A stretch of 64,000 nucleotides of DNA, from positions 1 through 64,000 of the forward strand of contig CAWJQC010000004.1 in NCBI GenBank assembly GCA_963844965.1. The letters are read 5' to 3'. This DNA is from an uncultured bacterium. GTDB lineage: Bacteria; Patescibacteriota; Minisyncoccia; UBA6257; 2-01-FULL-56-20. Made by a program: the position numbers and the translations under genes. Positions 1 through 42,576 of the stretch are shown one piece after another. The notes beneath the pieces were generated by a model, which made no database searches, was not told the origin of the DNA, and saw nothing but the letters and a program-made list of their open reading frames with translations. Each line of letters starts with the position of its first letter. Position 1 is the stretch's first letter.

Positions 1-3000
1 TATAGGCGGCGGCAGCAAAAGCTGCCAGTCCGCTCGGCAGTGAATTCGGATTTGTCGTCCACGCGCCGGTGCTGGAGGTGTTGATTTGGGCATAGAGAAC
101 CGTATGGTGCCTCCGTTACCGTTGCCTGTATTTGCGGTGCCGCCGAGATTGTAGATATAGCCATTCCAGACGACAGCCGAGTTGTACTCCAGCGCCGTAG
201 GCAGGAATTGGGATTTTTATACCACGTGCCGGTGCTTGAAGCGTTTATCTGAGCATAAAACACTGGAGGTGTTAACGCCGACTCCATTATCCTCGCCTCC
301 GATTGAATATATGTATCCGTTATAGGCAACGGCAGCCGTGTTATAAATAAGTGAAGCGGGCATATTGTTCGGATTCGTTTTCCACACGCCTATGGTGCCA
401 TTGGAGTTTATCGGAGCATAGTAAACATTATTGGTGTCCCCACCTAACGTATAAATATATCCGTTGTAAACGACGGCGGAGTAATGATTAAGCGCAACGG
501 GCAGCGAATTTGGTCGTCTGCCACGCCTGCACGATTGGCGACGCGTTGATGTGCGACGGAATCGTATTGAAACCGCTCACGGTCGCCGAGGAATCACTCA
601 ACTGCTGTTCCGCTCCGCCGAATGTGAAGGAAGAAGTCGCGTAATGCTGGGAACTCGTTGCCAGGAAATGTCCCAAACCGTCACTGAAGGCGGTACCGGA
701 TATGGCGAGGGTTGTTGAGGAATTGCCGGCGTTGCTCACATAGTGGATTTGGTTCGTGGAGCTGGTGTTCTGGCCGACGAGGAGCGTGCCGTAGGTTGAG
801 GACGCGGGCGAAACGTTAAAGCCCGTGAGGACGACAACGTCCACGTTGGAGGAAGTTGAGTTAGTGACACTGGATGTCGCACCCTCCTTGTCCACCGCCA
901 CGGCGTAAGCCACCCAATCCTGCGTGGGATAACTTGAGGTCGGCGATTGGCTGCCCGTGGAATCGGCGAAGTAGTAAAGTGCAACGGTATCGGTTTCGTT
1001 GTAATTCGTGCCGCTCACACAGGAACCAGTGGAAGAGACGACTCCGAGGTAGCACCAGCGGTTGTCGGTCGTGGGATTGGCTGTTTCACAAGTGGAAGAA
1101 GCGCCGGTGCGGAAAGCGGTGGAAGTAACGTGATAAATGTCCGTGTAGCCGTTCAGGTCCTGCACTGTGTAGTTTATCGTGAAGGTCGTCGTGGCGTTCA
1201 CGGTCAAGTTCAGATTGCTGTTGTTGTTAAGTTTCACAGCGGAGATAGTCGGTGTGTAATTGTGGTAAACATTCAACGCGATGCATGAAGTATATAGTCC
1301 GATGTCCTCTACGGTTGAAGTAGCGTGCCTCCGGTGCTCTTGCCGCCGACCATGTAGAGATAACCGTTCGCGATAGCAACCCTGCTGGTAGAGAGGAAGA
1401 GGCGTTGACGAGGCGGTGAGCCAGCTTGAGAGAGTGCCCGTGCCCTGATACCAGTACGTGCCCGTGGGAGTAGTTAATTGTTGGGCATAAAGAACGGTCG
1501 TGGTCACCCCTCCGTAGGCGGCGGTTGACGAACCGCCGGTAACGTAAATGAAGTTGTTGTAGCCCTCAACGTCCGGCTGGATGATGGGGGCGGGAAGTGC
1601 CGTGGCGGTCGTCCAGGAAGCGACCGAGCCGTCGGAGTTGAGATAGGCCATGTTCACGGTGGTCGTAATCGAGGAAAGCGAAGTGCCGGTGCTGCCTCCT
1701 ATGTTATAGATGACGTTATTGAGGATGGTTCCGTTCTGTTTTGTCATGGCAGCCGGAAGGCCTGGGTTGAGCTCCAGTTGGCTATGGTTCCCGTGGAACT
1801 TATGAGACCGTAGAGAACGGAAGTTGTGGCATTGCTCGTGTCATCGCCGCCTACGACATAGACATAGCCGGTATTAGGGTTAACTCCCGCGAAAGCGTTG
1901 TTGCGGTTTGCGGGAAGCTGGGCGGAGACGCTCGTGCTCCAGGAGCGAGAGTGCCGTTTGAGGCGATGGTTGACTGCGCGACCTGCGTGCTCGCCGCGCT
2001 TACCGTAGTTCCGCCGCCCACGACGTACATTATGGTAGTGCCGCCGGAGTTCGTGTAAGCGAAGGCCTGGTGCTGGACGCTGGCGGAGGGAAGCGCGGTC
2101 GTATTCCCTGAGCCGGTAGTTGTCCCGTTTGAGCCGACCGAGAAGTAACTCACTGTCGTCGTGCCGTTCGTACCGTCCGATGTTCCGCCTATGGAATAAA
2201 GATAGTTGTTGGAGAAGACGGCCTGGTTCAGGGAAATGGAGGTTGAAACCGCTCCCTGGGTCACCCAGCCCTCGGCGGCGGTCATACCCTGCTGGTTTAT
2301 CTGGGAGTAGAAAACTGTGGTCGTGGCGACGCTTATAGTACTCGTTCCTCCGGTCGTGTATATATAACCATTGGAGACAACCGCGGAGAGTTCGTCAAGT
2401 GGGCTCGGAAGAGCGGTGGCGGCGGTGCTCCAGGAGCCGACCGTGCCACTCGCCTGAAGCGGGGCATAGAAAATTGTGGTAGTAGCGCTGGAAATTGTGC
2501 TGCTTCCTCCCACCGTGTAGATGTATCCGTTATAGGCGACCGCGGAGTGCAGCATAAGCGGGCTCGGCAAGGAATTGGAGTTCAAGCTCCATGTTCCCAC
2601 CGTGCCGCTCTGATTTATCTTGGCGAAGAAAACGGAAGTGGTGGGGACGCCGGAAGTGGTCGTGGCTCGCCAGTCGTATAGATGTATCCGTTATAGGCGA
2701 CGGCGGAATGGAACATAAGCGGGCTCGGCAAGGAATTGGAATTCAGTGTCCACGTTCCTACGGTGCCACTGGAGTTTATCTGGGCGTAGAAAACAGAGGT
2801 GGTGGCGGGAGCGCCGGCGGCCGTGTTCGTGGCACCGCCGATCGCATAAAGATAACCGTTATAGGCGACAGCGGAAAGTTCGTTAAGAGGGCTAGACAAG
2901 GAACTGGAATTCAGGGTCCACGTTCCCACGGTGCCGTCCTGATTTATCTTGGCGAAGAAAACGGAAGTGGTGGCAGGAACGTTGGCGGCCGTGGTCGTGG

Positions 3001-6000
3001 CGCCGCCAATCGTATAGATGTATCCGTTATAGGCGACCGCGGAATGGTTGGCGATACCGCTCAGAAGTTTATTGGAGTTCGTAGACCACGCTCCCACCGC
3101 GCCGTTGGAACTTATCTGTGCATAGAAAACGGAGGAAGTAGCCGGAGTTGTGGCGGGAGCGCCGGTGGTTGATGTGGCTCCTCCCGTCGTGTAGATGTAG
3201 CCGTTGTAGACGACGGCGGAATGCCCGTAAAGAGCCGCAGTTGCGGGCAGGGAGGCCGCGTTCGTCGCCCACGTGTTGTCCACGCGCGTGAGGGTGCTTG
3301 AGCCATATAGGCCCGAGTTGTCGGGGTCATAGGCCTGCGCGCCCCACCAGTATGTGCCGGCTGTCAAGGTGTACTGAAAAATGCCGCTTGTTCCCGTCGC
3401 CGAAGTGGCGGAATAGGCCGTGCTGTTACTGGAACCGGAGGAAGCGTTCTGCCCGCTCCAGTTGGTCTGGCTTGAGGGCTCGGTGCTTGAAGTTACAACA
3501 TCCGTACACGCCTCGTTCTGGTAGAGAACCCACTTGTACTGCACGTACTGGTTAGAGGTTGATGTCAAAGTCGCCGTCATTTTGAATGTCGTGGAAGCGG
3601 TGTCAACTGTCGTCGTCGCGGCCACCGGAAAATTCAGTATCGGCCGCCGCGGCTGCGGCAGGGAAAGCGAAAGCGCGGGGTAGACGTTGTAAGAGTCAAA
3701 CGCAACAAAGCTCGCGCTCGTTGCCTCCTGAAGCCGGAAGTAGTAGGTTCCGTTGTTACCGTAGACATCCTGCGGACCAGCGCGGATGGCGTATTCCACT
3801 TCCGTCCAGGTAGAGGTCGGACTGCTGTAGGAAAAACCTATATTGACGAGTCCCGTCGTGCTTGAGGACTGCTTTATTTGGCCGGAAGTGGAAGCATTGG
3901 CGTCCGCGGTAAGCTGGGCGGTCGTGGAAGCGCCATCCGTAAAATTCGTTGAGGAGGCGATAAGGAAAAGTTGGCTGGAAAAAGTGGAGGTTGTGGGGAC
4001 CAGTGTCCAGGAACCGGAAGTCGCGTTGTATTGGTACTGAAGCTGGAGTTTGGGCTGGGTCGTTGTGGCGCGGGTGTTCGTAACCTCAATGCGCAGACGG
4101 TAAACGTTGGCCGTTGAGGTTGCGCTGCCCGTAGCGTTCTCCGCCGCCGTCTGCCAGACGGAGCTGGTTTCCGAGCCGGTATCGTTCCGCCAGCGGTAGC
4201 GCGTCTGCGTAAGATTGGGGGCGGCAGTGTAGGTAATGACGATGATACCCTTTGTGCCGTTGCCGCCGGCATTGGCTCTTCCTCCTCCTCCTCCGGCGGC
4301 GCCGGTAGGCGCCGCCGTTACTACCTGCCACGTTGCTGTTCGCTCCTCCTCCTCCTCCTCCGGCGCCGCCCGTCTCGTTGTTATTGGGAGAGGTTGCCGT
4401 CCAGTCCGTGTGCGTGCCGCCGACGCTTCCCGCCGCTCCTCCGAGCGCGCCGCAACCGCCGTTTCCGCCACGGCTGCTGGGGGTTGAACTCCCGACGCCG
4501 CAGTAGCTGGCAGCGCCTCCGCCCCCGCCGCCGACTGAAGTGGCGTTTGATCCGGCGCCACCGCCGTATAATATACTTCCGATGGAGCTTATTGTCGCTC
4601 CTCCCGCGCCTCCGGCTCTTTTGCTGTCGGTAGTGCTTGCCGCGCCGAATCCTCCCGCAGCGCACATCGAGGCACCGGTGCCTCCGCATGTCGTAGTGCT
4701 TACAGAAGCGCCGAACATCGTAGCGGTGCCGGTAGTCGCTGGCGTGGTGGAAGCGCCCAAGCCAACGTCGCCTACCTTAATACTTACGGAGGAACCGGCG
4801 ACGAGAGAGGTGCTGCCGTTTGCTATTTCAGCGTAGGCGGCGCCGCCTCCTCCTGCGCCGTAGCGGCCGCTACTAGCGCTTGTTGCTTTGGAGGCGCCGC
4901 CGCCGCCGCCGATGCCCTCAATCGTGTTTGAAGCAAGGTTCCAGTCGGCGGGCACTATCCAGCTCGTAACGGCGGTAGAGGTCACAAAAACGACCGTGTT
5001 CGCCGTGCCGGCGTCCGCCGCTATCTGCCACTGCCTCGTTTCTATAGGACTTATAAGACCTATAGGACTTATAGGAGCCGCGGTGAGCGGGCCCAGGAGA
5101 TAGAACTCCGGGCTCACGTTCGGCGCCTGGAATTCGTACCAAAGCGTGTGACTCTCGCCGGCCCGCCAGTTGACCTGCCAGGAAATATTTTGCGTGTCCG
5201 AACCGCAATTCACGAGACAAGTACTGCCGGACACGAGTACCCGTGACCTGCGACAGAAAACCGTTATCCTGCGATGCGTTGCCCGTTCCTTGCGTAGTGC
5301 CATCCATTCCCTGTTCCGCAACCTGGAAACCTTTCGGGACGGTTTCCGTGACCGTTCCGGAGAAATCCGACTGCGCGGCCGCCTTGATCTCCATCCTGTA
5401 GAACGCGGGCGGGTAAATTCTCGTGCGACCGATACGCTCCACGTTCCACAGCGGCGAATCCTCAACCGTGAAGCTGTCGCTCGTCGTTCGTTCGCCGTTC
5501 GCCGTCGTCGCCGTGAGCGTTACATTATAAGTGCCGGTCGCGTCCGGCTTGAAGGTCGCGTAGTAGTCGGGGGCGTTGGTGACGGTGGACGCGCCGCACT
5601 CGGAACTGCGCGTGATGGTGCCGTCTTCGGTGCTCATGACCGCGACGCCTCCGCTTGGCAGACCTGCCTGCGCAGGCAGGCTTATCGTGATATCGGCCTC
5701 GGCGTCGCAAATCGTGTGCCCCATGTCGTCCAAAACCGAAAATCCGATTCCCGCCTCGTCGCCGTCGCTCAAACTGTAAACCGTTTTATTGAAATTCAGA
5801 GCGATGACGCCCCAACTGAAGTCGCTCTGCGAGACATATACAGTGCCGTCCTTGACTATGAAAACCTTCACGGTGTAGCGGCCGGGGCGGAAGGAACTCC
5901 TTTTCGGGAAAGTGAACGTCAAACTGCTTCCGTTTTCCGTTGCCGAAGGCGAAATGTCCGGCATGAAATTCCCGTCCGGGCCGAAAACCTGAATGGCGTA

Positions 6001-6213
6001 GGGCGGAGCGGCACGGGCATGGGACACACCACACGCAACATGTAGCATGCAACATGTAACACCAGATAAAAAGAGGAAGGCAAAAAAGGCAGCAGCAAAA
6101 AATAACAAGAAATATGGGTGATACCGCCGGCTATTTTGAAGTTGAGAGGGAGTCATTTTGCCATATACCGCAAAACCAGCGGGACGAACAACCGCTTGTT
6201 CTAATTTTAACAC
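1..6213 (-). CDS. Giant secreted or cell-surface protein (about 2000 aa if contiguous) with N-terminal signal/TM, Ig/fibronectin-like beta domains, a Gly-rich segment and many Kelch-like beta-propeller repeats (motif AVAYNGYIYTxGG); broken into five or more frames (ORFs 4918..6213, 4086..5465, 2615..4561, 1851..2600, 488..1747, unlisted repeats in 1..487); runs off the left edge
   Basis: Consecutive minus-strand ORFs whose real parts abut; frame switches near 5230, 4330, 2670, 1800, 1350 and 480; repeats YNGYIYTIGG/SAVAYNGY in every piece; at 2670 one repeat unit is 1 nt shorter than its neighbours. Confidence 0.6.
2450..3250 (-). repeat. About 160-bp tandem coding repeats (5 units) encoding Kelch-like blades inside the giant surface-protein gene
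   Basis: Near-identical DNA units ...gtatagatgtatccgttataggcgac... recurring every ~160 bp. Confidence 0.8.
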
Positions 6214-6285
6214 ATATAAAACTGACCGACTTATTAACAGAGGCCGTTCGCGAGTTAACGAGTTGCGAGTTAACGAGTTGGCCGG

Positions 6286-6675
6286 CTACTTTTTTAAAAA
6301 TTGCCTGCTTATTCTTTTCCCCTCCAGATAAACTATAAAACTGCCTGTTTGATTGGCTAAATCCTCAAGTTTGCCGTTAATCCGGCTGAATTGCGCGCCG
6401 GAAATATAACCGACGGCTAACGCAACGTGAAGTTGGTTCCTTGTTTCGCCCACAGAACCCTTGGCGATTTTTAGGTAACGGATAAATTCATTGTTGTTGT
6501 TCTTTTCAAAACCCTCGGCAATATTGGAACTGATGGAGATAACGGCTCTTCTTATCTGATCGCGCAGACAAAAATCCCTGGAAAATTCTTTCTGGCTGGT
6601 CAAATCGTAAATTTCCTTCGTTATTTCCAAACTCAACTTCCAAATATTCAAATCCTCAAATTTAGTTATTCTCAT
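6286..6675 (-). CDS. Four-helix bundle protein (PF05635/TIGR02436, the 23S rRNA intervening-sequence protein family)
   Basis: 129 aa; typical ...ISISSNIAEGF..., ...KGSVGETRNQL... motifs; flanked by inverted CGAGTTAACGAG repeats (6251-6278 and 6688-6711). Confidence 0.8.
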   Translation of the reverse strand: MRITKFEDLNIWKLSLEITKEIYDLTSQKEFSRDFCLRDQIRRAVISISSNIAEGFEKNNNNEFIRYLKIAKGSVGETRNQLHVALAVGYISGAQFSRINGKLEDLANQTGSFIVYLEGKRISRQFLKK

Positions 6676-6725
6676 GAGTTGAATTAAACTCGTTAACCCG
6701 TTAACTCGTTAATTTATTAATGCAC

Positions 6726-10199: not shown

Positions 10200-10640
10200 A
10201 TTCTATAACATAATCGCAAGCGGGTCTAATAACACCTTGCCAGGTCGCCTGCCTGCCGGTTTACCCGCCGAAGGAGGACAGGCAGGTCTAACGGCCCACG
10301 CACCAAAACAAAGTTTGGTACGGGGTAAATAGGACATCGGCCGGCGCGAAGTCCCGCATAAAGCTGCGGGGTCGTCTAACTTGCCCCGCCGCACTTTAAA
10401 AAATCAAAAATAAATTTCTTGCCAGTGCTGCCGGGTCGTCTAATGGTAGGACATCGGCCTTTGGAGCCGAGTATCTTGGTCCGACTCCAAGCCCGGCAGC
10501 ACTGGCCGGAAAAGTGCGGCGGGGTGAAGTAGGACACGGGCCTTTGGAGCCCGGTATGAAGGTTCGATTCCTTCCCCCTCAGCACGAGCCACCGCAGTAT
10601 AATCCGACCCTACTCGCCATAGGTCGAGGAAGGCCGGATA
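10200..10640 (+). repeat. Cluster of tRNA-like repeats and pseudo-tRNAs; GTAGGACA(T/C)(C/G)GGCC occurs three times, gtcgtctaa twice, plus a P1/P2 palindrome
   Basis: Recurrent tRNA D-arm and anticodon-arm-like segments; only one unit folds into a complete cloverleaf. Confidence 0.5.
10429..10499 (+). tRNA. tRNA-Gln (anticodon TTG), no encoded CCA
   Basis: Acceptor tgccggg/cccggca, 3-bp D stem gtc/gac, anticodon stem tcggc/gccga with loop ctttgga, T arm cttgg-tccgact-ccaag; unusual C55 in the T loop. Confidence 0.5.
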
Positions 10641-10648
10641 GAAAAATT

Positions 10649-11176
10649 TCAAAATTCTAACGTGAACTTCGCCCGTTCCCCTTTCTTGAACGGGTGTTTT
10701 ATTTCTTTCATTTCGGTCACCAAATCGGCCGCGCCAATAAATTCACGCGGCGCGTTGCGGCCGGTCAAAATCAAAATTTTACCTTCCGGAAAACTTTTTA
10801 TGGCGCGCAATACCCGCTCCGCGGAAAGCAACCCCAATTTCACCGCAACATTTATTTCGTCCAGGACCATCAAATGCCACTTGCCGCTTTTCAATTCCTT
10901 CGCAAAATATTTGAGCGCTTTCTCCGCGGCTTCAGCGTGTTTCTTCTTCGGCAGTTTATCGCCAAGTATTCCCACGAACCCCAAACCCATTTTCTTGATT
11001 GAAAATTGAAAATTGAAAATTGAAAATTTTTCCGCGAATTCATCTTCGCCCGACCGCCACGGCCCCTTGATGAATTGGATCATGAGCGCCGATTTTCCGC
11101 GCCCCAAAACCCGCACCATCTGCCCCAAAGCCGCGGTCGTTTTCCCTTTTCCGTTTCCCGTGAAAACTATTATCAT
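10649..11176 (-). CDS. btuR: Cob(I)yrinic acid a,c-diamide / cob(I)alamin adenosyltransferase (CobO/BtuR family)
   Basis: MIIVFTGNGKGKTTAALG...IQFIKG P-loop typical of CobA/BtuR; the CDS contains a gaaaatt x4 microsatellite (FSIFNFQFS). Confidence 0.7.
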   Translation of the reverse strand: MIIVFTGNGKGKTTAALGQMVRVLGRGKSALMIQFIKGPWRSGEDEFAEKFSIFNFQFSIKKMGLGFVGILGDKLPKKKHAEAAEKALKYFAKELKSGKWHLMVLDEINVAVKLGLLSAERVLRAIKSFPEGKILILTGRNAPREFIGAADLVTEMKEIKHPFKKGERAKFTLEF

Positions 11177-11185
11177 TTCTGTCGG

Positions 11186-11258
11186 GCCGCTGGGAATCGA
11201 ACCCAGTCTTTATCCGCCAAAGGCGGACAGGCGCACCCTCACCCCCACACCGATTGTA
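11186..11258 (-). ncRNA. tRNA-like 3' portion (anticodon arm with TTT, T arm ctggg-ttcgatt-cccag, acceptor 3' strand cggcccg) directly downstream of tRNA-Pro
   Basis: Lacks its own 5' acceptor; the complementary cgggccg lies at 11399-11405 on the far side of tRNA-Pro. Confidence 0.5.
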
Positions 11259-11263
11259 ATTTG

Positions 11264-11334
11264 TCGGGGAGCCGGGAATCGAACCCGGTCTTCACGCACC
11301 CGAAGCGCGCGTACTGCCGGTATACTACTCCCCG
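11264..11334 (-). tRNA. tRNA-Pro (anticodon CGG)
   Basis: Acceptor cggggag/ctccccg, D arm gtat-accggca-gtac, anticodon stem cgcgc/gcgtg with loop ttcgggt, T arm ccggg-ttcgatt-cccgg. Confidence 0.75.
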
Positions 11335-11405
11335 GTAAATTGGTGTGGGGGCGTGGCGCACGCCTGTCCGCCTCCGGCGGATACTACCGGTATACTACGG
11401 CCCGT
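11335..11405 (-). ncRNA. tRNA-like 5' fragment (acceptor cgggccg plus D arm tagtataccggtagta, nearly identical to the tRNA-Pro 5' half), followed by a tccgcc-ggag-ggcgga hairpin and an inverted-repeat arm caggcg...cccccacacc
   Basis: No T arm; its 3' tail is complementary to the head of the 11186-11258 fragment (ggtgtggggg...cgcctg). Confidence 0.5.
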
Positions 11406-11892: not shown

Positions 11893-12294
11893 TTAGCCGA
11901 TTTTTCTCTTCGTTTTTTCCCGATGCAAACGCTTTGACTTTTGCGTCAAAGCGAAAACGGACAAAACCATAATGTAATCGGCTACGACTTCCGAAGAAAC
12001 CTTGTAAGCCGAACCCAGAAAAAATGAGGCGATGATGAGCGCGAAGATGACGACGGTCCAAAGAAGCACAAAAACTTCGCCGGGATGGCGGCTTTCGTGA
12101 ATATCGTACCACCTGTCAAATTCCTTTGTTCCGGCGTAGAGGCCCAAGACGCCCACATAAACCACGCTAAAAGGCGCGATGAGATACCCATAGGCATCAG
12201 CCGCGAAAAAATTTATCACTACGAAAACAATAAAAACCATCGTCCAAAAATTCACGATGTTGCGCAAAATTTTTTCGTTATGAAACAGGTCCAT
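11893..12294 (-). CDS. Hypothetical integral membrane protein (3-4 TM)
   Basis: 133-aa ORF with hydrophobic helices. Confidence 0.45.
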   Translation of the reverse strand: MDLFHNEKILRNIVNFWTMVFIVFVVINFFAADAYGYLIAPFSVVYVGVLGLYAGTKEFDRWYDIHESRHPGEVFVLLWTVVIFALIIASFFLGSAYKVSSEVVADYIMVLSVFALTQKSKRLHREKTKRKIG

Positions 12295-12486
12295 TACTTT
12301 ATATGATACTTTTCTTTCATCTCCTCTTCAACAACCACGCCCTCCCGCTCGGCAAATGCCGAGCGAGGCTCGCCCACTATCGTGGGCGGCAAACTCCATT
12401 ACTGAACATGATACTTATCTTTTATTTCTTGCTCAATCCCTGTTTCAAACTCCTCTTTGGCTCCCTTGGCTTTTTCGGAAAGTTTT

Positions 12487-14040
12487 TTAAGCTCCGCGTC
12501 CGGCATTTTCCCTAACTCCTTGATCCTTTTCTTCCAGCTTCTCTTTTATGTTTCGCTTCGGGTCGTCCAGAACTTCTTCAAGTAAAACCGACAAGATGAA
12601 CCCCACTCGCGGGCCGGGCGGAATGTCCAAAATCTTCATCACGTCGTCGCCTTTAACTTTGAGCATCTTCGGCGAGATCGGGTCGTGCTTCACTTTTTCT
12701 ATCATGAACAAAAGATGGCGCAGCTTATATGGGAAAGCTTTCGGGACGCCGGAACCGATGCGGTCGGCCTCGCGCACTTTGAGCAAGTCGGGAACGTTCT
12801 CCGGGCCGACGCGCGCCAAAAACCTCCGTACGCCTGCTTCCGTCACTTCTCCCACGTTGTAGTAGAAAAGATGGTAGCGCACGAGGTGCACGACTTTTTC
12901 CGCGAAATCCTTTGAGAAACGCAGGCGGTCCAGAGCTTTCGCCGCCATTTTCGCGCCGATATATTCATGCTGATAAAAAGTTGAGTCGGGCCCCTCGCCT
13001 CTTTTTGACTTGGGCTTGCCGAGGTCGTGCAAAAGCGAAGCCAGCCGCACTTCAAGCGAATAATTTTGCTTTACGGCGTAATCAAGCGCGCGGATGTTGT
13101 GCTCAAAAACCGAATAGATGTGATGCTTGTTCTGGCCGACGCCGAGCCCCTCCCGCAGTTCCGGCAGGACATACTGGAGCAAATTCAATTCTTCCAAAAG
13201 CAGAATTCCCTGCGCGGCGCGCGGCGCCATTATTATCTTCTCAAACTCGTCGCGGATCCGCTCTTTGGCGACGGCGTCCAGCAGCGGGCTCAGTTTTTCT
13301 ATCGCGCGGCGCGTTCCCAAATCGATCTGCCAGCCAGAGGCTGGTCCGCCTCCGGCGGAAAAATCAACCCCTCGACTTTGCTCGGGGTTGGCTCGTTCAT
13401 CGAACGAGCCAAGTTCCACGGCGAACCGCACGGCGCGCATGAGACGGAGCGCGTCTTCGTTGAATCGCTCTTCCGGCAGGCCCACGGTGCGGATAATTTT
13501 ATCTTTCAAATCTTTCCGGCCGTCGTACGGATCAATGATTCCCCCAGCTGTCCACCTGACAAGACCCATTGCGATCGCGTTTATCGTAAAATCGCGCCGC
13601 GACAGGTCTTCGTCAATCGTTTTCGCGAAGGTGATGTAATCGGGATGCCGCTTGTCGGTATATTTCCCCTCTTCCCGGAAGGTCGTCACCTCTACCACTC
13701 TTGTGGTCGCAGATACTCGCGGACTTAACGCCGAATCACGCTGAAAACTTTCTGCGTTATTCTGCGTACTGTCTGCGTCCTTCCGCGGTGCGAGTTTAAC
13801 GAGCACAGTGCCGAAATCGTTCTCGTAAACCGTTGACGGATTTTCCGGCGTGCCGCCGTGGAAATTCAGAAACAATTCCTGCACTTTATCGGGCGTCGCG
13901 TTAGTCGCCACATCCCAATCTTTCGGTTCCCGCCCGAGCAAAAGGTCACGCACGCAGCCGCCGACAAGATAGGCCTCGTAACCCTTTTCGCCAAGCAACG
14001 CGCCGATTCTCTTTTACTTCTCCGGGAATGTCGTGTTTCG
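12487..14040 (-). CDS. cca: CCA-adding tRNA nucleotidyltransferase with C-terminal HD domain; N-terminus disrupted by a 1-nt indel in an AAAA run near 13995
   Basis: GYEAYLVGGCVRDLLLGREPKDWDVAT; upstream frame MERKTKHDIPGEVK continues the canonical N-terminus; carries an in-frame palindromic insertion (FSAGGGPASGWQ) at 13331-13368. Confidence 0.85.
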
Positions 14041-34467: not shown

Positions 34468-34497
34468 CACCTATGATTGTGTATAATCTATAGCATT

Positions 34498-34770
34498 ATG
34501 GCCAAGAAAGACCTGCATCCCCAATATTATCCCGCCGCCAAGGTGCACTGCGCCTGCGGAAACACTTTCACAGTTGGCTCAACCAAACCCGAGATTCAGG
34601 TTGAAATCTGCCACAAGTGCCACCCGTTCTATACCGGCGAAGAAAAACTGATAGATACCGCTGGACGCGTGGAGAAGTTTAAGATACGACGGGCCAAAGC
34701 AGTCACGGCTCCCAAGAAAAAGCCCCGACGCGCCCGAGCAACGGAGGACAAGAAGGAACATCGGAAATAA
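34498..34770 (+). CDS. rpmE: 50S ribosomal protein L31
   Basis: [24 protein letters not shown]...[13 protein letters not shown]. Confidence 0.85.
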
Positions 34771-35822: not shown

Positions 35823-36665
35823 ATGAATTTTATGTATCGGATGGGGTTTTCGGCAATTCTGAAAGTGCGGAATGTCTACCTTGCCTTCCCAAGATGCTAT
35901 AAAGCGGCTGCCGAATGCTACGAAAAAATCGTTTGGTGGCACCTGCTCGTGGCGCCTATCATTCTCATAATCGGCGGCTTCGTGTGGGGCATCGTGACCG
36001 GCGGCCTTTTGTGGGGTCTGAAATGCGGCTCCGGCGTTTTCTTCCTGTTCTTCGAAGCCGAGGGCGTAATCGGATTCTGGGCAAAAGTCATCGGCATCTC
36101 GTTACGTGGGGCGGTGGTCCTCTCCATATTGTGCAGTTCTTACGATATCTTCTGTTTGTTCATACTATCAAACAAAGCGGTGGCTGGCCTAAGGCGTTCG
36201 GTAAAAGCCAACCCGGAAAAGGCCGGCGACTCCTGGACTGACAAATTTTTCTTTCTTGTGCGGGCATTTGAATCCCGCGCTCACGTGGCGGCCGCTGAGG
36301 TTGAAGACAAGGTAAAAAATCTGGAAACTGAATCGGACAACTCGCGGTTCGCCAGAGCATACCGTTGGTTCAAAAGACGCAAGTTACTTTACGCGACGCT
36401 TCCGATCTTCGGATTCGTAGTCGGCGCCCTTTTCATCGGCGTCCCCCTGTCCGTTGTCTGTGGGCTGAATCAGTTGCTTTCCTTTGTCCTAATCGTATCC
36501 GGCAATGCACTGAAGATGATCGCGGCCGGCTATACCGTCTTAAAGATAGGAATGTTCGGCGTCATTCTTTCAGTTGTAGCTGTGGCGTTCGCCGAAAAGG
36601 CAATCAAGTTCTGCATTAGAAAATGGCGGCATCGCCATCTGCAACATAAGAAGGGCCTCGCTTAG
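35823..36665 (+). CDS. Hypothetical polytopic membrane protein
   Basis: 280 aa with more than six hydrophobic helices. Confidence 0.45.
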   Translation: MNFMYRMGFSAILKVRNVYLAFPRCYKAAAECYEKIVWWHLLVAPIILIIGGFVWGIVTGGLLWGLKCGSGVFFLFFEAEGVIGFWAKVIGISLRGAVVLSILCSSYDIFCLFILSNKAVAGLRRSVKANPEKAGDSWTDKFFFLVRAFESRAHVAAAEVEDKVKNLETESDNSRFARAYRWFKRRKLLYATLPIFGFVVGALFIGVPLSVVCGLNQLLSFVLIVSGNALKMIAAGYTVLKIGMFGVILSVVAVAFAEKAIKFCIRKWRHRHLQHKKGLA

Positions 36666-36724
36666 CGGGGCCTTATTTAATCAATGGCAAAATCCGAGTA
36701 GGCGACAATTTCCCCCGACCATAA

Positions 36725-37126
36725 TCAGGGCGCAACATTCAACAATGTCTTGATTTGATCGACCGTCTTGTTCAGATCGTCGGATTTTTTGATGTACCCA
36801 TCGGCGCCCAATTCCCCGGCAAAGCGACGGTCAATTTCCTGTATTTCCCGCCGCGGATCGCCCAAACTTGATAGAAAAACCACTTTTATATTTTTGGTTT
36901 CGGGGTCACTCTTCAACCGCAATACTGCGTCGGCGCCGCTTACTCCCGGCATCTTCACGTCCATTAAAATTAAATCCGGCTTCAATTCTTTAGCCATTTT
37001 TATCCCGCTCTCACCGTCCCCAGCCGTTTCCACTCTAAATCCAGCACTGGTCAACTTCATGCCAAAAATCTCCAGAAAGTCCGGCTCATCGTCAACAATC
37101 AATATCAAGGGTTGTTTATCTGTCAT
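36725..37126 (-). CDS. Response regulator, receiver domain only
   Basis: LILIVDDEPDFLEIF...DLILMDVKMPGVSG. Confidence 0.8.
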   Translation of the reverse strand: MTDKQPLILIVDDEPDFLEIFGMKLTSAGFRVETAGDGESGIKMAKELKPDLILMDVKMPGVSGADAVLRLKSDPETKNIKVVFLSSLGDPRREIQEIDRRFAGELGADGYIKKSDDLNKTVDQIKTLLNVAP

Positions 37127-37337
37127 ATTACCTGCTTTAATTATACAATATCATTATATCATAATTGGCACTAAACACGGGAAGCGTGCCGAAACGCGTA
37201 GAGCGACAGCCGCGCCGGCACAATCCCCATTTACGAAACCATGAACAAAATAATCCTAGAAATCCGGGCTGGAACGGGCTTGCCCGCCATAGCCAAATTT
37301 TATAAATAATTCAAGTACGAAGTGGTGCAACAAAAGC

Positions 37338-38057
37338 ATGACAAATAAAGTTATTTTGGAAATAAGGGCGGGGGCGGGAGGTGACGAAGCCGCTATCTTT
37401 GCGGGCGATCTCGCGCGAATGTACCAACGCTACGCCGCAAGGCGCGGCTGGGGATTCGCGACGCTTGACTCAAACGAAACATCGCTCGGCGGCTATAAAA
37501 CATTTATCGCCGAGATAAAAGGAGAAAATGTTTATGACGCGCTGAAAAACGAATCTGGCGTCCATCGCGTCCAGCGCGTGCCGAAAACCGAGAAATCGGG
37601 ACGTGTACACACCTCAACCGCTTCAGTGGCTGTGATTCCCGAAGTGGAAGCAAAACTGGTTGATGTCAACCCGAACGACTTGGAAGTGACATTTTCTCGC
37701 GCCGGCGGCCCCGGCGGCCAGAACGTCAACAAGGTTGAAACGGCCGTAAGGATCTTGCACAAACCGACCGGCATCGTCGTTTCCTGCCGTGAAGAACGCT
37801 CACAGAACGCCAACCGCGAAAAAGCTCTGGAAATTCTGCGCGCGAAATTATTCGAACTTCAGCGCGAACAAGCAGCCGGCAAAGTAAGCGAAATCCGCCG
37901 CGAACAAATCGGCTCCGCCGAACGCGCGGAAAAGATACGCACATATAATTTCCCAGAAGACAGAATCACCGACCACCGCCTCGGAAAGAAGTTTCACAAC
38001 ATAGAGAAAATTCTTGACGGGGATTTGGAACCGATAGTCAAGGCTTTCCAAAAATAA
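37338..38057 (+). CDS. prfA: Class I peptide chain release factor, RF1-like, lacking the N-terminal domain; PKT in place of PAT
   Basis: GGQ motif ([10 protein letters not shown]), [14 protein letters not shown]; only 239 aa and only 207 nt of upstream space; a pseudo-start duplicate MNKIILEIRAGTG lies at 37241. Confidence 0.7.
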
Positions 38058-38067
38058 AACGAGGCGG

Positions 38068-38406
38068 TTATTTCCGCCTCTTGACCTTCTTGGTTTTGGA
38101 ATCCCGCCTTCCCGCGGGCTCCGGCTCCGTCCTACCGCCAAAATACATCCGGCTGTCAATTTCAATCCTGGTGCCGCATCCCGGGCAGGGAACATAATGA
38201 ACAATAAAATCCTGTGTGCCGACAGCGCCTCCGTCAACTGTCTGGATTTGCGCGACCACCTTTTTTCCATCATTTTTCTCAAGTTGGAATTGGCATGCGC
38301 AAATACTGTTGTTGCATACCCAAACTTTTTCCAGCCAATCAGGCCAAACGCTCTTAGATTTCCATTCTCTTACTACGTGCACGCGCCGACTAACCAGTAT
38401 TTTCAT
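38068..38406 (-). CDS. Hypothetical zinc-ribbon protein
   Basis: CPGCGTRIEID plus CNNSICAC cysteine pairs. Confidence 0.4.
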   Translation of the reverse strand: MKILVSRRVHVVREWKSKSVWPDWLEKVWVCNNSICACQFQLEKNDGKKVVAQIQTVDGGAVGTQDFIVHYVPCPGCGTRIEIDSRMYFGGRTEPEPAGRRDSKTKKVKRRK

Positions 38407-38500
38407 TGCTAACCTCCTTCCTTCTTGTGAAATATCACTCAACCACATGACAAGGCAACTGAGAATACAATATTGCACAATTATTAAAAAGTCAAATGAG

Positions 38501-42264: not shown

Positions 42265-42576
42265 TTATTTAGCTCTTGCCTTATCAACCCTATCTATGGC
42301 GCTCTGATACTGATCGCGTATCTTTTCAAGCTCCTTGCGCTGATCGATCAGTGCATTTGCTGTCGCCTGACCATGCCTGACGCCATATTTTACTTGTTCT
42401 TGAATCTGCTTCTGAAGCTCCGCAATCTCTGCTAACTTCTTCGCAAGTTCTTCCTTGTAAATTTCGTACATTTCCTCGTCTTCTTGCGAAGCTTCGCCGC
42501 TATTTTGAATTATTTCTTTCCCGTCCATATGAGTATGATATAATTTCACTATACACCAATGCTGACTTTTGAACAA
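42265..42576 (-). CDS. Hypothetical coiled-coil protein
   Basis: 103-aa ORF. Confidence 0.4.
   Translation of the reverse strand: MFKSQHWCIVKLYHTHMDGKEIIQNSGEASQEDEEMYEIYKEELAKKLAEIAELQKQIQEQVKYGVRHGQATANALIDQRKELEKIRDQYQSAIDRVDKARAK

Follow-up and report, generated by a model that had tools for sequence, protein, structure and literature searches.

Domain 1 of release factors 1 and 2 (RF1 and RF2) is present in almost all bacteria, yet it is dispensable for stop-codon reading and catalysis in laboratory deletions. According to PMC1586002, which cites Mora et al. (2003), E. coli RF1 deleted for domain 1 retains its codon specificity and its release activity in vitro, and the truncated RF1 works in vivo; the same paper states that domain 1 is required for stimulation by RF3 and that prfC is absent from small genomes. 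Here we analyse what appears to be a natural counterpart, an open reading frame (ORF) on a 64,000-nucleotide stretch of DNA from an uncultured patescibacterium (contig CAWJQC010000004.1 of assembly GCA_963844965.1, positions 1 to 64,000 of the forward strand; hereafter the window). The ORF at 37338-38057 (+) starts with ATG, stops with TAA and encodes 239 amino acids that correspond to RF1, the prfA product, without domain 1; a short copy of its own start lies just upstream. The engineered E. coli RF1 and RF2 deletions, as that paper presents them, have the same architecture but are laboratory constructs, whereas the deletion in the window is natural, fixed and conserved across a lineage.

Relative to canonical RF1 (T. 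maritima 1RQ0, T. thermophilus 4V63/4V7P and E. coli 5J30), the window protein is alike in domains 2, 3 and 4, in the PxT loop, the helix alpha5 tip, the GGQ motif and the switch-loop region, and is encoded at the same rpmE-linked locus, but it is missing the entire ~100-residue domain 1. PrfH (RF-H), a natural class I paralog, resembles it in lacking domain 1 and in carrying GGQ; PrfH, however, has a different reading head and an RtcB2 partner and is an accessory rescue factor, whereas the window protein is an RF1 ortholog that carries PxT and has no RtcB neighbour. Human mtRF1a (MTRF1L) has the tripeptide PKT, as does the window protein, and decodes UAA and UAG (PMC1976341). Its chain in the PDB, 7nqh_BL, aligns over the whole of the window RF1, but mtRF1a retains its N-terminal domain, and the lysine in common is one tolerated x among many and no sign of relatedness.

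Taking the sequence and structural comparisons together, we consider it probable that the ORF is a genuine, functional RF1, minimised and fixed across a Parcubacteria/Paceibacteria clade of the Candidate Phyla Radiation (CPR), with the upstream copy as a mark of recombination or insertion. Pfam recognises only the C-terminal half of the PCRF domain (PF03462, profile positions 100-194 of 194, E 2.7e-45), followed by a complete RF-1/GGQ domain (PF00472, E 1.7e-39). The NCBIfam RF1 models TIGR00019 and NF001859 rank first, at 371.2 and 359.5 bits, with alignments over profile positions 104-338 and 112-347 that take in none of the first ~103-111 positions, those of domain 1; because the first ~100 profile positions are absent, both scores stay under the equivalog cut-offs (400 and 423.25). 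The RF2 model TIGR00020 gives 245.8 bits against a cut-off of 370, and PKT stands in place of SPF, so that the protein does not class as an RF2. RF1 structures in the PDB are 50-60% identical to the protein, in alignments that begin at residue 85 of the T. maritima chain or residue 107 of the T. thermophilus chain and run to the end. Foldseek places the protein on ribosome-bound RF1 chains at 46-51% identity with template-modelling (TM) scores of 0.76-0.84, and an AlphaFold model of the 239 residues, with a predicted local distance difference test score of 85, superposes on ribosome-bound RF1 over its full length at TM 0.83-0.84.

The N-terminus lies four residues ahead of the first strand of domain 2, which leaves the helix alpha5 tip only 13 residues from the start of the protein. 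The frame cannot be extended upstream, as the stretch from the last in-frame stop to the RF1 ATG is free of ATG, GTG and TTG codons, and the response-regulator gene further upstream (36725-37126, minus strand) is separated from RF1 by a gap of only 211 nucleotides (nt). There is therefore no space for a domain 1 of ~100 residues. An initial annotation of this DNA, made from the letters alone, had described an RF1-like factor that begins at the domain 2 boundary with no room upstream for domain 1, and that carries PKT and an intact GGQ; the alignment starts in NCBIfam and the PDB, the gap, the family comparison (371 bits for RF1, 246 for RF2) and direct reading of the two motifs bear it out on each point. 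Since domain 1 is truly absent, its suggestion that the domain contacting RF3 and the ribosomal stalk has been lost is a fair one. The gene also occupies the orthologous rpmE-linked prfA locus. In the related loci L012, L013, L015, L026 and L034 (L numbers denote loci from other genomes) rpmE is immediately upstream of prfA; in the window it is at 34477-34770, 2.5 kb upstream, with a two-component block in between. The window neighbours of RF1 are the response regulator, a NUDIX protein and an ADK-like protein, and no RtcB. Coordinates are collected in Table 1.

Table 1. Features in and around the truncated prfA gene of the window.
Feature	Position	Strand	Basis or remark
prfA ortholog, RF1 with domains 2-4 only	37338-38057	+	Pfam, NCBIfam, PDB alignment, AlphaFold model
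Codons G14-G15-D16-E17, helix alpha5 tip, reader of the first stop-codon base (U)	37377-37388	+	aligned to T. thermophilus G116 to E119
P82-K83-T84, PxT 'tripeptide anticodon'	37581-37589	+	direct reading
G126-G127-Q128, catalytic GGQ	37713-37721	+	direct reading
22-codon upstream ORF, stop TAA at 37307-37309	37241-37309	+	codons 1-13 (37241-37279) duplicate the start of RF1
Spacer from copy to RF1 ATG, 58 nt	37280-37337	+	small G+C hairpin CGGG-CUUG-CCCG at its start; AT-rich TATAAA-like boxes
Promoter-like site CTGTCA, 18 nt, TACAAT	37120-37149	+	-10 within element TATTATACAAT; promoter role predicted
G+C hairpin, terminator-like for the minus strand	38061-38080		between convergent RF1 and ORF 38068-38478

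The truncation is a clade-wide lineage trait and not a local event. All of the best 120 database relatives, which are 76-100% identical to the window RF1, are 233-267 residues long and have the N-terminal consensus M-x-K-(I/V)-I-L-E-I-R-A-G; those that carry names are Patescibacteria, Parcubacteria or Paceibacterota (Jorgensen-, Brenner- and Liptonbacteria). Among first-ATG ORFs at 80 loci from species-representative genomes, RF1 is 239-249 residues long in the close clade (L006-L014), 267, 270, 292 and 312-329 residues at most other CPR/Parcubacteria loci, 341-360 residues at four CPR-named loci (L037, L054, L056 and L064), and 352-372 residues in Cyanobacteria, Bacteroidota, Ignavibacteria and others, setting aside the outliers L079 (387 residues) and L081 (381 residues) as well as L021 and L042, in which the upstream frame is truncated or has no early ATG. 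The Parcubacterial N-terminal region measures ~80 residues against the usual ~110. When 1.8 billion cluster representatives were scanned with HMMER, a few short clusters (P0123, 232 residues; P0124, 242 residues) again came up together with intermediates; the top two matches of the representative search, P0121 and P0122 (477-481 residues), were rejected as fusions, as they contain internal RF1 duplications and look like assembly artefacts. The length series suggests that the N-terminus was lost stepwise across CPR lineages.

Full-text literature searches found no description of a natural RF1 lacking domain 1, which is not proof that the form is undescribed. Such a lineage, with sisters of intermediate length, amounts to a ready-made evolutionary experiment on the parts that domain 1, RF3 and the L11 stalk play in termination, and is one more reduction of the translation machinery in CPR bacteria. 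There is also a practical consequence: the short RF1s score under the curated cut-offs, and their only annotation is 'PCRF domain-containing protein'. Surveys could therefore wrongly record these genomes as having no RF1.

The residues that read the stop codon have been kept along with the catalytic motif. Across the 120 relatives the equivalents of T. thermophilus G116, E119, Q181, P184, T186, H193 and T194 are invariant, and G14, E17, Q79, H91 and T92 of the window RF1 align to T. thermophilus stop-codon contact residues. At the helix alpha5 tip G14, G15 and E17 do not vary, and D16 is D in 118 sequences and E in two; the equivalent of T. thermophilus I192 is V in 107 and I in 13. GGQ is found in 119 of the 120, the one exception having D for the first G, and its Q is invariant. 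With a reading head that is complete (the tip of helix alpha5, the loop with PxT, and Q, H and T residues for bases 2 and 3) and a GGQ domain, the protein would bind UAA or UAG in the A site, open, and hydrolyse peptidyl-tRNA in the manner of canonical RF1, a release step that we infer from the conserved residues and from the fit of the model to ribosome-bound RF1. Domain 1, the part that is gone, is the helical bundle that touches the L11 stalk and RF3, and without it release and recycling would have to proceed unstimulated by RF3; that release by this minimal RF1 probably proceeds without RF3 agrees with the published domain-1-deletion work on E. coli RF1. We conclude that the protein is, as far as its residues predict, a minimal but canonical UAA/UAG release factor in a genome where UGA remains a stop.

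The second feature of the locus is the copy of the RF1 start. An ATG at 37241, 97 nt before the RF1 ATG, opens a frame that encodes MNKIILEIRAGTG and then an unrelated tail, LPAIAKFYK. Ten of the 12 residues after Met are identical to those of the real start (NKIILEIRAGTG in the copy). At the nucleotide level 24 of 36 positions agree, and by hand count the 12 differences comprise eight at third, four at first and none at second codon positions. Nei-Gojobori comparison of the first 10 codons gives a synonymous divergence (pS) of 1.26 and a nonsynonymous divergence (pN) of 0.04, with nine of 10 scored differences synonymous. The ungapped BLOSUM score of the copy is 52, against a mean of 22.3 (standard deviation 8.9) for all comparisons of gene termini with flanks in the window, and apart from the internal repeats of a repeat protein it is the top terminus-to-flank match. 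The initial annotation had reported a decayed duplicate of the first 13 codons ~97 nt upstream; the duplicate and its distance stand, but 'decayed' does not describe a copy with an intact ATG and mostly synonymous differences.

The spacer between copy and gene shows no derivation from the RF1 coding sequence and no significant similarity to the spacers of relatives. No significant RNA fold was found in the window leader (z -0.17), and the sole match of an Rfam scan of 36600-38300 (15.7 bits, E 0.99) is outside leader and spacer and not convincing. The TATTATACAAT element is conserved, being found upstream of RF1 in L001, L003, L166, L168, L170, L171, L127, L173 and L175. In L166 and L170 it is only 9-17 nt from the RF1 ATG, and its distances to the ATG suggest short-leader or leaderless mRNAs; even under a loose definition, Shine-Dalgarno-like motifs are present at only 6 of 41 gene starts in the window.

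Copies of the RF1 start also occur in four related lineages. In L001/L002 (RF1 88% identical to that of the window) the copy is part of a 40-codon upstream ORF that overlaps the real ATG; L168/L169 (82%) have two successive upstream copies; in L014 (69%) the copy has no canonical start codon; and in L173 (84%) it reads MDKIIVETKVG..., is partly decayed and has diverged in the RAG part. L003-5, L166, L167, L170-172, L086, L127 and L006-L013 have no copy, and the copies are distributed patchily on the RF1 tree. Compared with one another and with their own genes, all copies give saturated pS (0.6-1.2) and low pN (0-0.13), and the real gene starts behave alike. The copy-to-gene spacers of relatives are 20-90 nt long, and those of L001, L168, L014 and L173 are unrelated or only partly related. 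A further copy, EPIVKAFQR*, lies at the other end of the gene in L168, ~55 nt past the RF1 stop; third positions have changed in seven of its eight differing codons. It is in another frame, and selection on a peptide is impossible there.

Duplicated gene ends of this general kind are known from integrating elements, which leave a duplicate of the gene end together with a replacement terminus, as SXT/R391 does at the 5' end of prfC and e14/phage 21 at the 3' end of icd. There, too, a short terminus copy stands beside an intact gene with mainly synonymous differences. In the window, however, the copies are a mere 58 nt apart, with no integrase, element body, otherwise recognisable element or inverted repeat between them, and membership in this group is not supported.

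We nevertheless lean, at somewhat better than even, towards reading the upstream copy as a scar of recombination or insertion. The copy and the present start would have diverged while both were coding, in different genomes or alleles, and would have been joined later; the copy would then mark recombination or insertion at the RF1 5' boundary, a putative hot spot in this clade. This reading is favoured because of four observations: the L168 3' copy, a second duplicated module in the window, a palindrome common to several such sites, and inserts at the RF1 boundary of relatives. The module, at 12290-12436 (-) between two genes unrelated to RF1, holds two copies of a segment in which the CCA-adding-enzyme gene ends and the gene at 11893-12294 begins, the two overlapping at TAATGG. 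The two repeats are 42 nt long and 79% identical, with none of nine differences at second codon positions; their termini read EIKDKYHVQ* and EMKEKYHIK*, and the 63 nt that separate them hold two hairpins and the palindrome GGCGAGCCTCGC at 12363-12373. A terminus duplicate with mainly synonymous differences, as expected of a scar, is thus seen at the RF1 start, past the RF1 stop of L168 and in this module. The palindrome GGCGAGSCTCGCC is common to L168 (three sites), the L014 spacer and the window insert at 12363 (p <= 0.002), and L173 has a one-mismatch version; it is not in the RF1 spacers of the window or L001. As for the boundary inserts, L003 carries at 4824-4985 an insert resembling a miniature inverted-repeat transposable element (MITE), with 32-nt inverted repeats (20 nt perfect) and TTATAC flanks, that splits the conserved -10 element, and L175/L176 carry at 1376-1507 a MITE-like insert of ~120 nt with CCCGTT/AACGGG ends and ATGGAT flanks exactly at the RF1 start codon. 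The RF1 5' boundary accordingly looks like an insertion hot spot, and the terminal-copy modules point to an uncharacterised duplication of gene ends in these genomes.

Several observations weigh against this picture. The window and L001 copies differ at seven sites, six of them synonymous, while their spacers can barely be aligned; if the two copies are orthologous, six synonymous changes of seven imply purifying selection (p ~0.001-0.01). A pS of 0.6-1.2 with a pN of 0-0.13 is also what would be expected of a translated and selected leader peptide. Third-position identity to the nearest relatives is 0.55-0.63, which leaves the allele-replacement test without power, and replacement of the RF1 allele is not demonstrable. 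The L168 3' copy has only nine residues and alone is not significant after multiple testing. The identification of the gene itself draws on 64 kb of the genome, and RF2, RF3, L11, PrmC and any second full-length prfA may lie in the rest.

These same numbers lend themselves to another explanation, in which the copy is a functional, translated leader ORF that is kept by selection and that loads or couples ribosomes onto the RF1 start or regulates it. We regard this as a real possibility, if one with the odds against it. The ORF has an intact ATG and 22 codons and lies downstream of a conserved -10 element; conservation among copies is of the coding type; between the window and L001 change is mostly synonymous where the spacer is hardly alignable; and Shine-Dalgarno motifs are so rare in the genome that the lack of one is no obstacle and translation could begin at the upstream ATG as plausibly as at any other. 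The upstream ORFs of L001 and L168 even end at or overlap the next ATG, but this follows automatically from the sequence ATGRATAAA, which has stops in both other frames. The patchy occurrence is harder to accommodate, as most close relatives (L003, L166, L167, L170-172, L086, L127 and L006-L013) do without the copy, that of L014 has no canonical start and that of L173 has diverged in its RAG part. The stop codons of the upstream ORFs (TAA, TAA, TAA, TGA, TAG) are mixed, which does not fit an RF1-specific sensor, and the window leader has no significant structure. The same coding-like divergence is found in the L168 3' copy, which cannot be translated as such. The autoregulatory frameshift of prfB offers a precedent for a short frame that precedes the coding sequence of a release factor; the window copy, unlike prfB, has no common frame, no slippery site and no RF-specific stop, most relatives have no copy at all, and the sequence features of the upstream ORF give no sign of autoregulation as in prfB. 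A broader proposal combines the two ideas: the clade would terminate on class I factors without the RF3/L11-docking domain, breakpoints after ILEIRAG would show that the domain was shed by terminal duplication or insertion creating a new start, and the surviving copies would be leader peptides that load ribosomes or tune RF1 in a largely Shine-Dalgarno-less genome. We judge this unlikely as a whole.

Other origins for the copy were considered and set aside. It is not a decayed remnant of a longer RF1 fragment, since the spacers have no similarity to downstream coding sequence. That ribosomes pass from the upstream ORF into RF1 by a frameshift or hop is at odds with offsets of 97, 115 and 72/59 nt in differing frames, and an in-frame ATG with a full N-terminus is present in each genome. 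A template and variable repeat pair of a diversity-generating retroelement, an idea prompted by a reverse-transcriptase gene in L001, was rejected because the differences are not limited to A positions. Recent capture from a sampled donor is not supported either, as no real RF1 start matches any copy above the background of 0.79-0.85, and the window RF1 as a foreign allele stays unproven, the amino-acid identities being incongruent and the third-position identities not. Finally, one small element common to all spacers fails on the absence of GGCGAGSCTCGCC from the window and L001 RF1 spacers; the inverted repeats of the MITE-like inserts of L003 and L175 are not in the window spacer, and the motif CCCGTAGAG is not enriched.

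The surroundings of RF1 in these relatives have further peculiarities. In L168 the two 5' copies and the 3' copy (2860-3010 and 3724-3810) flank RF1 with GGCGAGSCTCGCC three times at the junctions, and two of these palindromes pair into a stem of 17 bp that encloses the second of the 5' copies (z -4.1 for the fold). The region 1-290 of L173 holds an N-terminal fragment of ~55 residues of the CCA-adding enzyme that runs in frame into a promoter-like element and the decayed copy, and the gene caller called the whole as one ORF of 93 residues. The L001 reverse-transcriptase gene (RVT_1, 322 residues; 5742-6710, minus strand) is directly downstream of RF1, in a locus that also has a start copy. 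Tandem repeats of 7-8 nt separate the response-regulator gene from the promoter-like element of RF1 in L166 (1-70), L127 (~2280-2340), L168 (2765-2830) and L001 (4755-4790); the units are TTAGTCA, AGCTCGTT, GTGTTAG and TTTAGAA, a different one in each genome, and there are none in the window.

We turn to explanations that would change the identity of the gene. The ORF might be a paralogous rescue or accessory factor of the ArfB/YaeJ, PrfH or ICT1 type in a genome with a normal full-length prfA elsewhere, a case the initial annotation had itself allowed for with an ArfB- or YaeJ-like factor. Domain 1 is absent from PrfH and ArfB as well, and the genome beyond the window is not visible; yet the ArfB model matches residues 108-140 only (52.4 bits against a cut-off of 100) and the PrfH model TIGR03072 gives 76.5 bits against a cut-off of 166.65, while RF1 reaches 371 bits, so that both an ArfB/YaeJ-like paralog and PrfH are ruled out by the sequence. 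Factors of the ArfB type, of ~140 residues, consist of a GGQ domain with a basic C-terminal tail and have no domain for codon reading. A complete codon-reading domain with PxT, 50-60% identity to orthodox RF1, the rpmE-linked prfA locus without an RtcB neighbour, and shortness in all of the 120 nearest homologs make an accessory paralog of any of these types very improbable.

It seems just as improbable that the gene is split, with domain 1 still produced from a separate small ORF. A Parcubacterial domain-1 profile does find many short database proteins (58-167 residues), three of which, P0271, P0302 and P0324, are on long contigs (12-99 kb), but most such matches are partial genes at contig ends or frameshifted, and the short matches belong to lineages with an RF1 of ~320 residues. 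In the window, tblastn and hidden Markov model searches with the Parcubacterial domain 1 gave no convincing match: a helical ORF of 87 residues within 42265-42576 (-) was hit weakly (HMMER E 0.0037; hhalign probability 57%), as a generic coiled-coil would be. This ORF, counted from an internal Met, is upstream of a class II aminoacyl-tRNA synthetase gene, an ORF of 81 residues is at the equivalent position in L003, and its likeness to RF1 domain 1 is probably spurious. The domain-1-only ORFs of other Parcubacteria (P0271, P0275, P0302 and P0324; 75-88 residues, some on contigs of 12-99 kb) are of interest in themselves. Several stop right after the EIVLEVR motif (...FPNEIVLE(VR)), and they may represent prfA genes that are split or frameshifted, intermediates toward the form of 240 residues.

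The initial annotation had further proposed that loss of domain 1 together with an 'altered' PxT modifies stop-codon recognition; this could mean, for example, a changed code or an omnipotent factor. Domain 1 is indeed gone, x is K, and no RF2 was seen in the window, but we hold this proposal to be most improbable. The middle residue of PxT in the best 120 homologs is K in 75, A in 14, T in seven, E in six by motif count or seven by alignment column, S in four and V in four, with N, D, R, I and Q rarer; in the full-length RF1s of other phyla in the 80-locus set it is A, V, E, D, Q, L or M. Because this position varies freely, K is uninformative on codon reading, and UAA/UAG-specific mtRF1a has PKT too. 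None of the residues known to tell bases 1-3 apart varies among the 120 homologs, and deletion of domain 1 leaves specificity unaffected according to PMC1586002. The initial annotation had pointed to TGA reassignment as something to check; among 65 crude ORF calls in the window, stops are TAA in 27, TAG in 23 and TGA in 15, each of the three terminates long ORFs, the tRNA-Trp anticodon is CCA, and the standard code gives a normal coding density. With UGA still a stop here, the genome should encode an RF2 of its own at another place; the 64-kb window and ~1 Mb of related loci contain no RF paralog, neither RF2 nor RF3. That the 5' end was lost by mis-assembly or by a recent deletion that made a pseudogene has a negligible chance, for although the region upstream of RF1 is prone to rearrangement, >100 independent clusters, drawn from many different assemblies and sources, have this same start, and the ORF is both intact and strongly conserved.

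Other parts of the window show irregularities of their own. The CCA-adding-enzyme gene (12487-13998) is seemingly frameshifted near GAAGAAAAGGATCAAGG, at ~12487-12560 (-), with the C-terminus to be expected (IKELGKMPDAELKKL...KYHVQ*) carried on in a different frame; the cause is either an error of sequencing or a genuine frameshift. Beside tRNA-Gln, at 10515-10582, stands a second, weak tRNA-like sequence (Rfam 32.8 bits; not called by ARAGORN), and partial tRNA-like repeats at 11180-11225 and 11377-11404 stand on either side of tRNA-Pro; the tRNA-like sequences at 10515-11404 may be decayed tRNA copies or integration scars. The first part of the window (1-4561) encodes Kelch/beta-propeller-like repeat proteins with tandem DNA repeats of 159-168 nt that are 63-84% identical.

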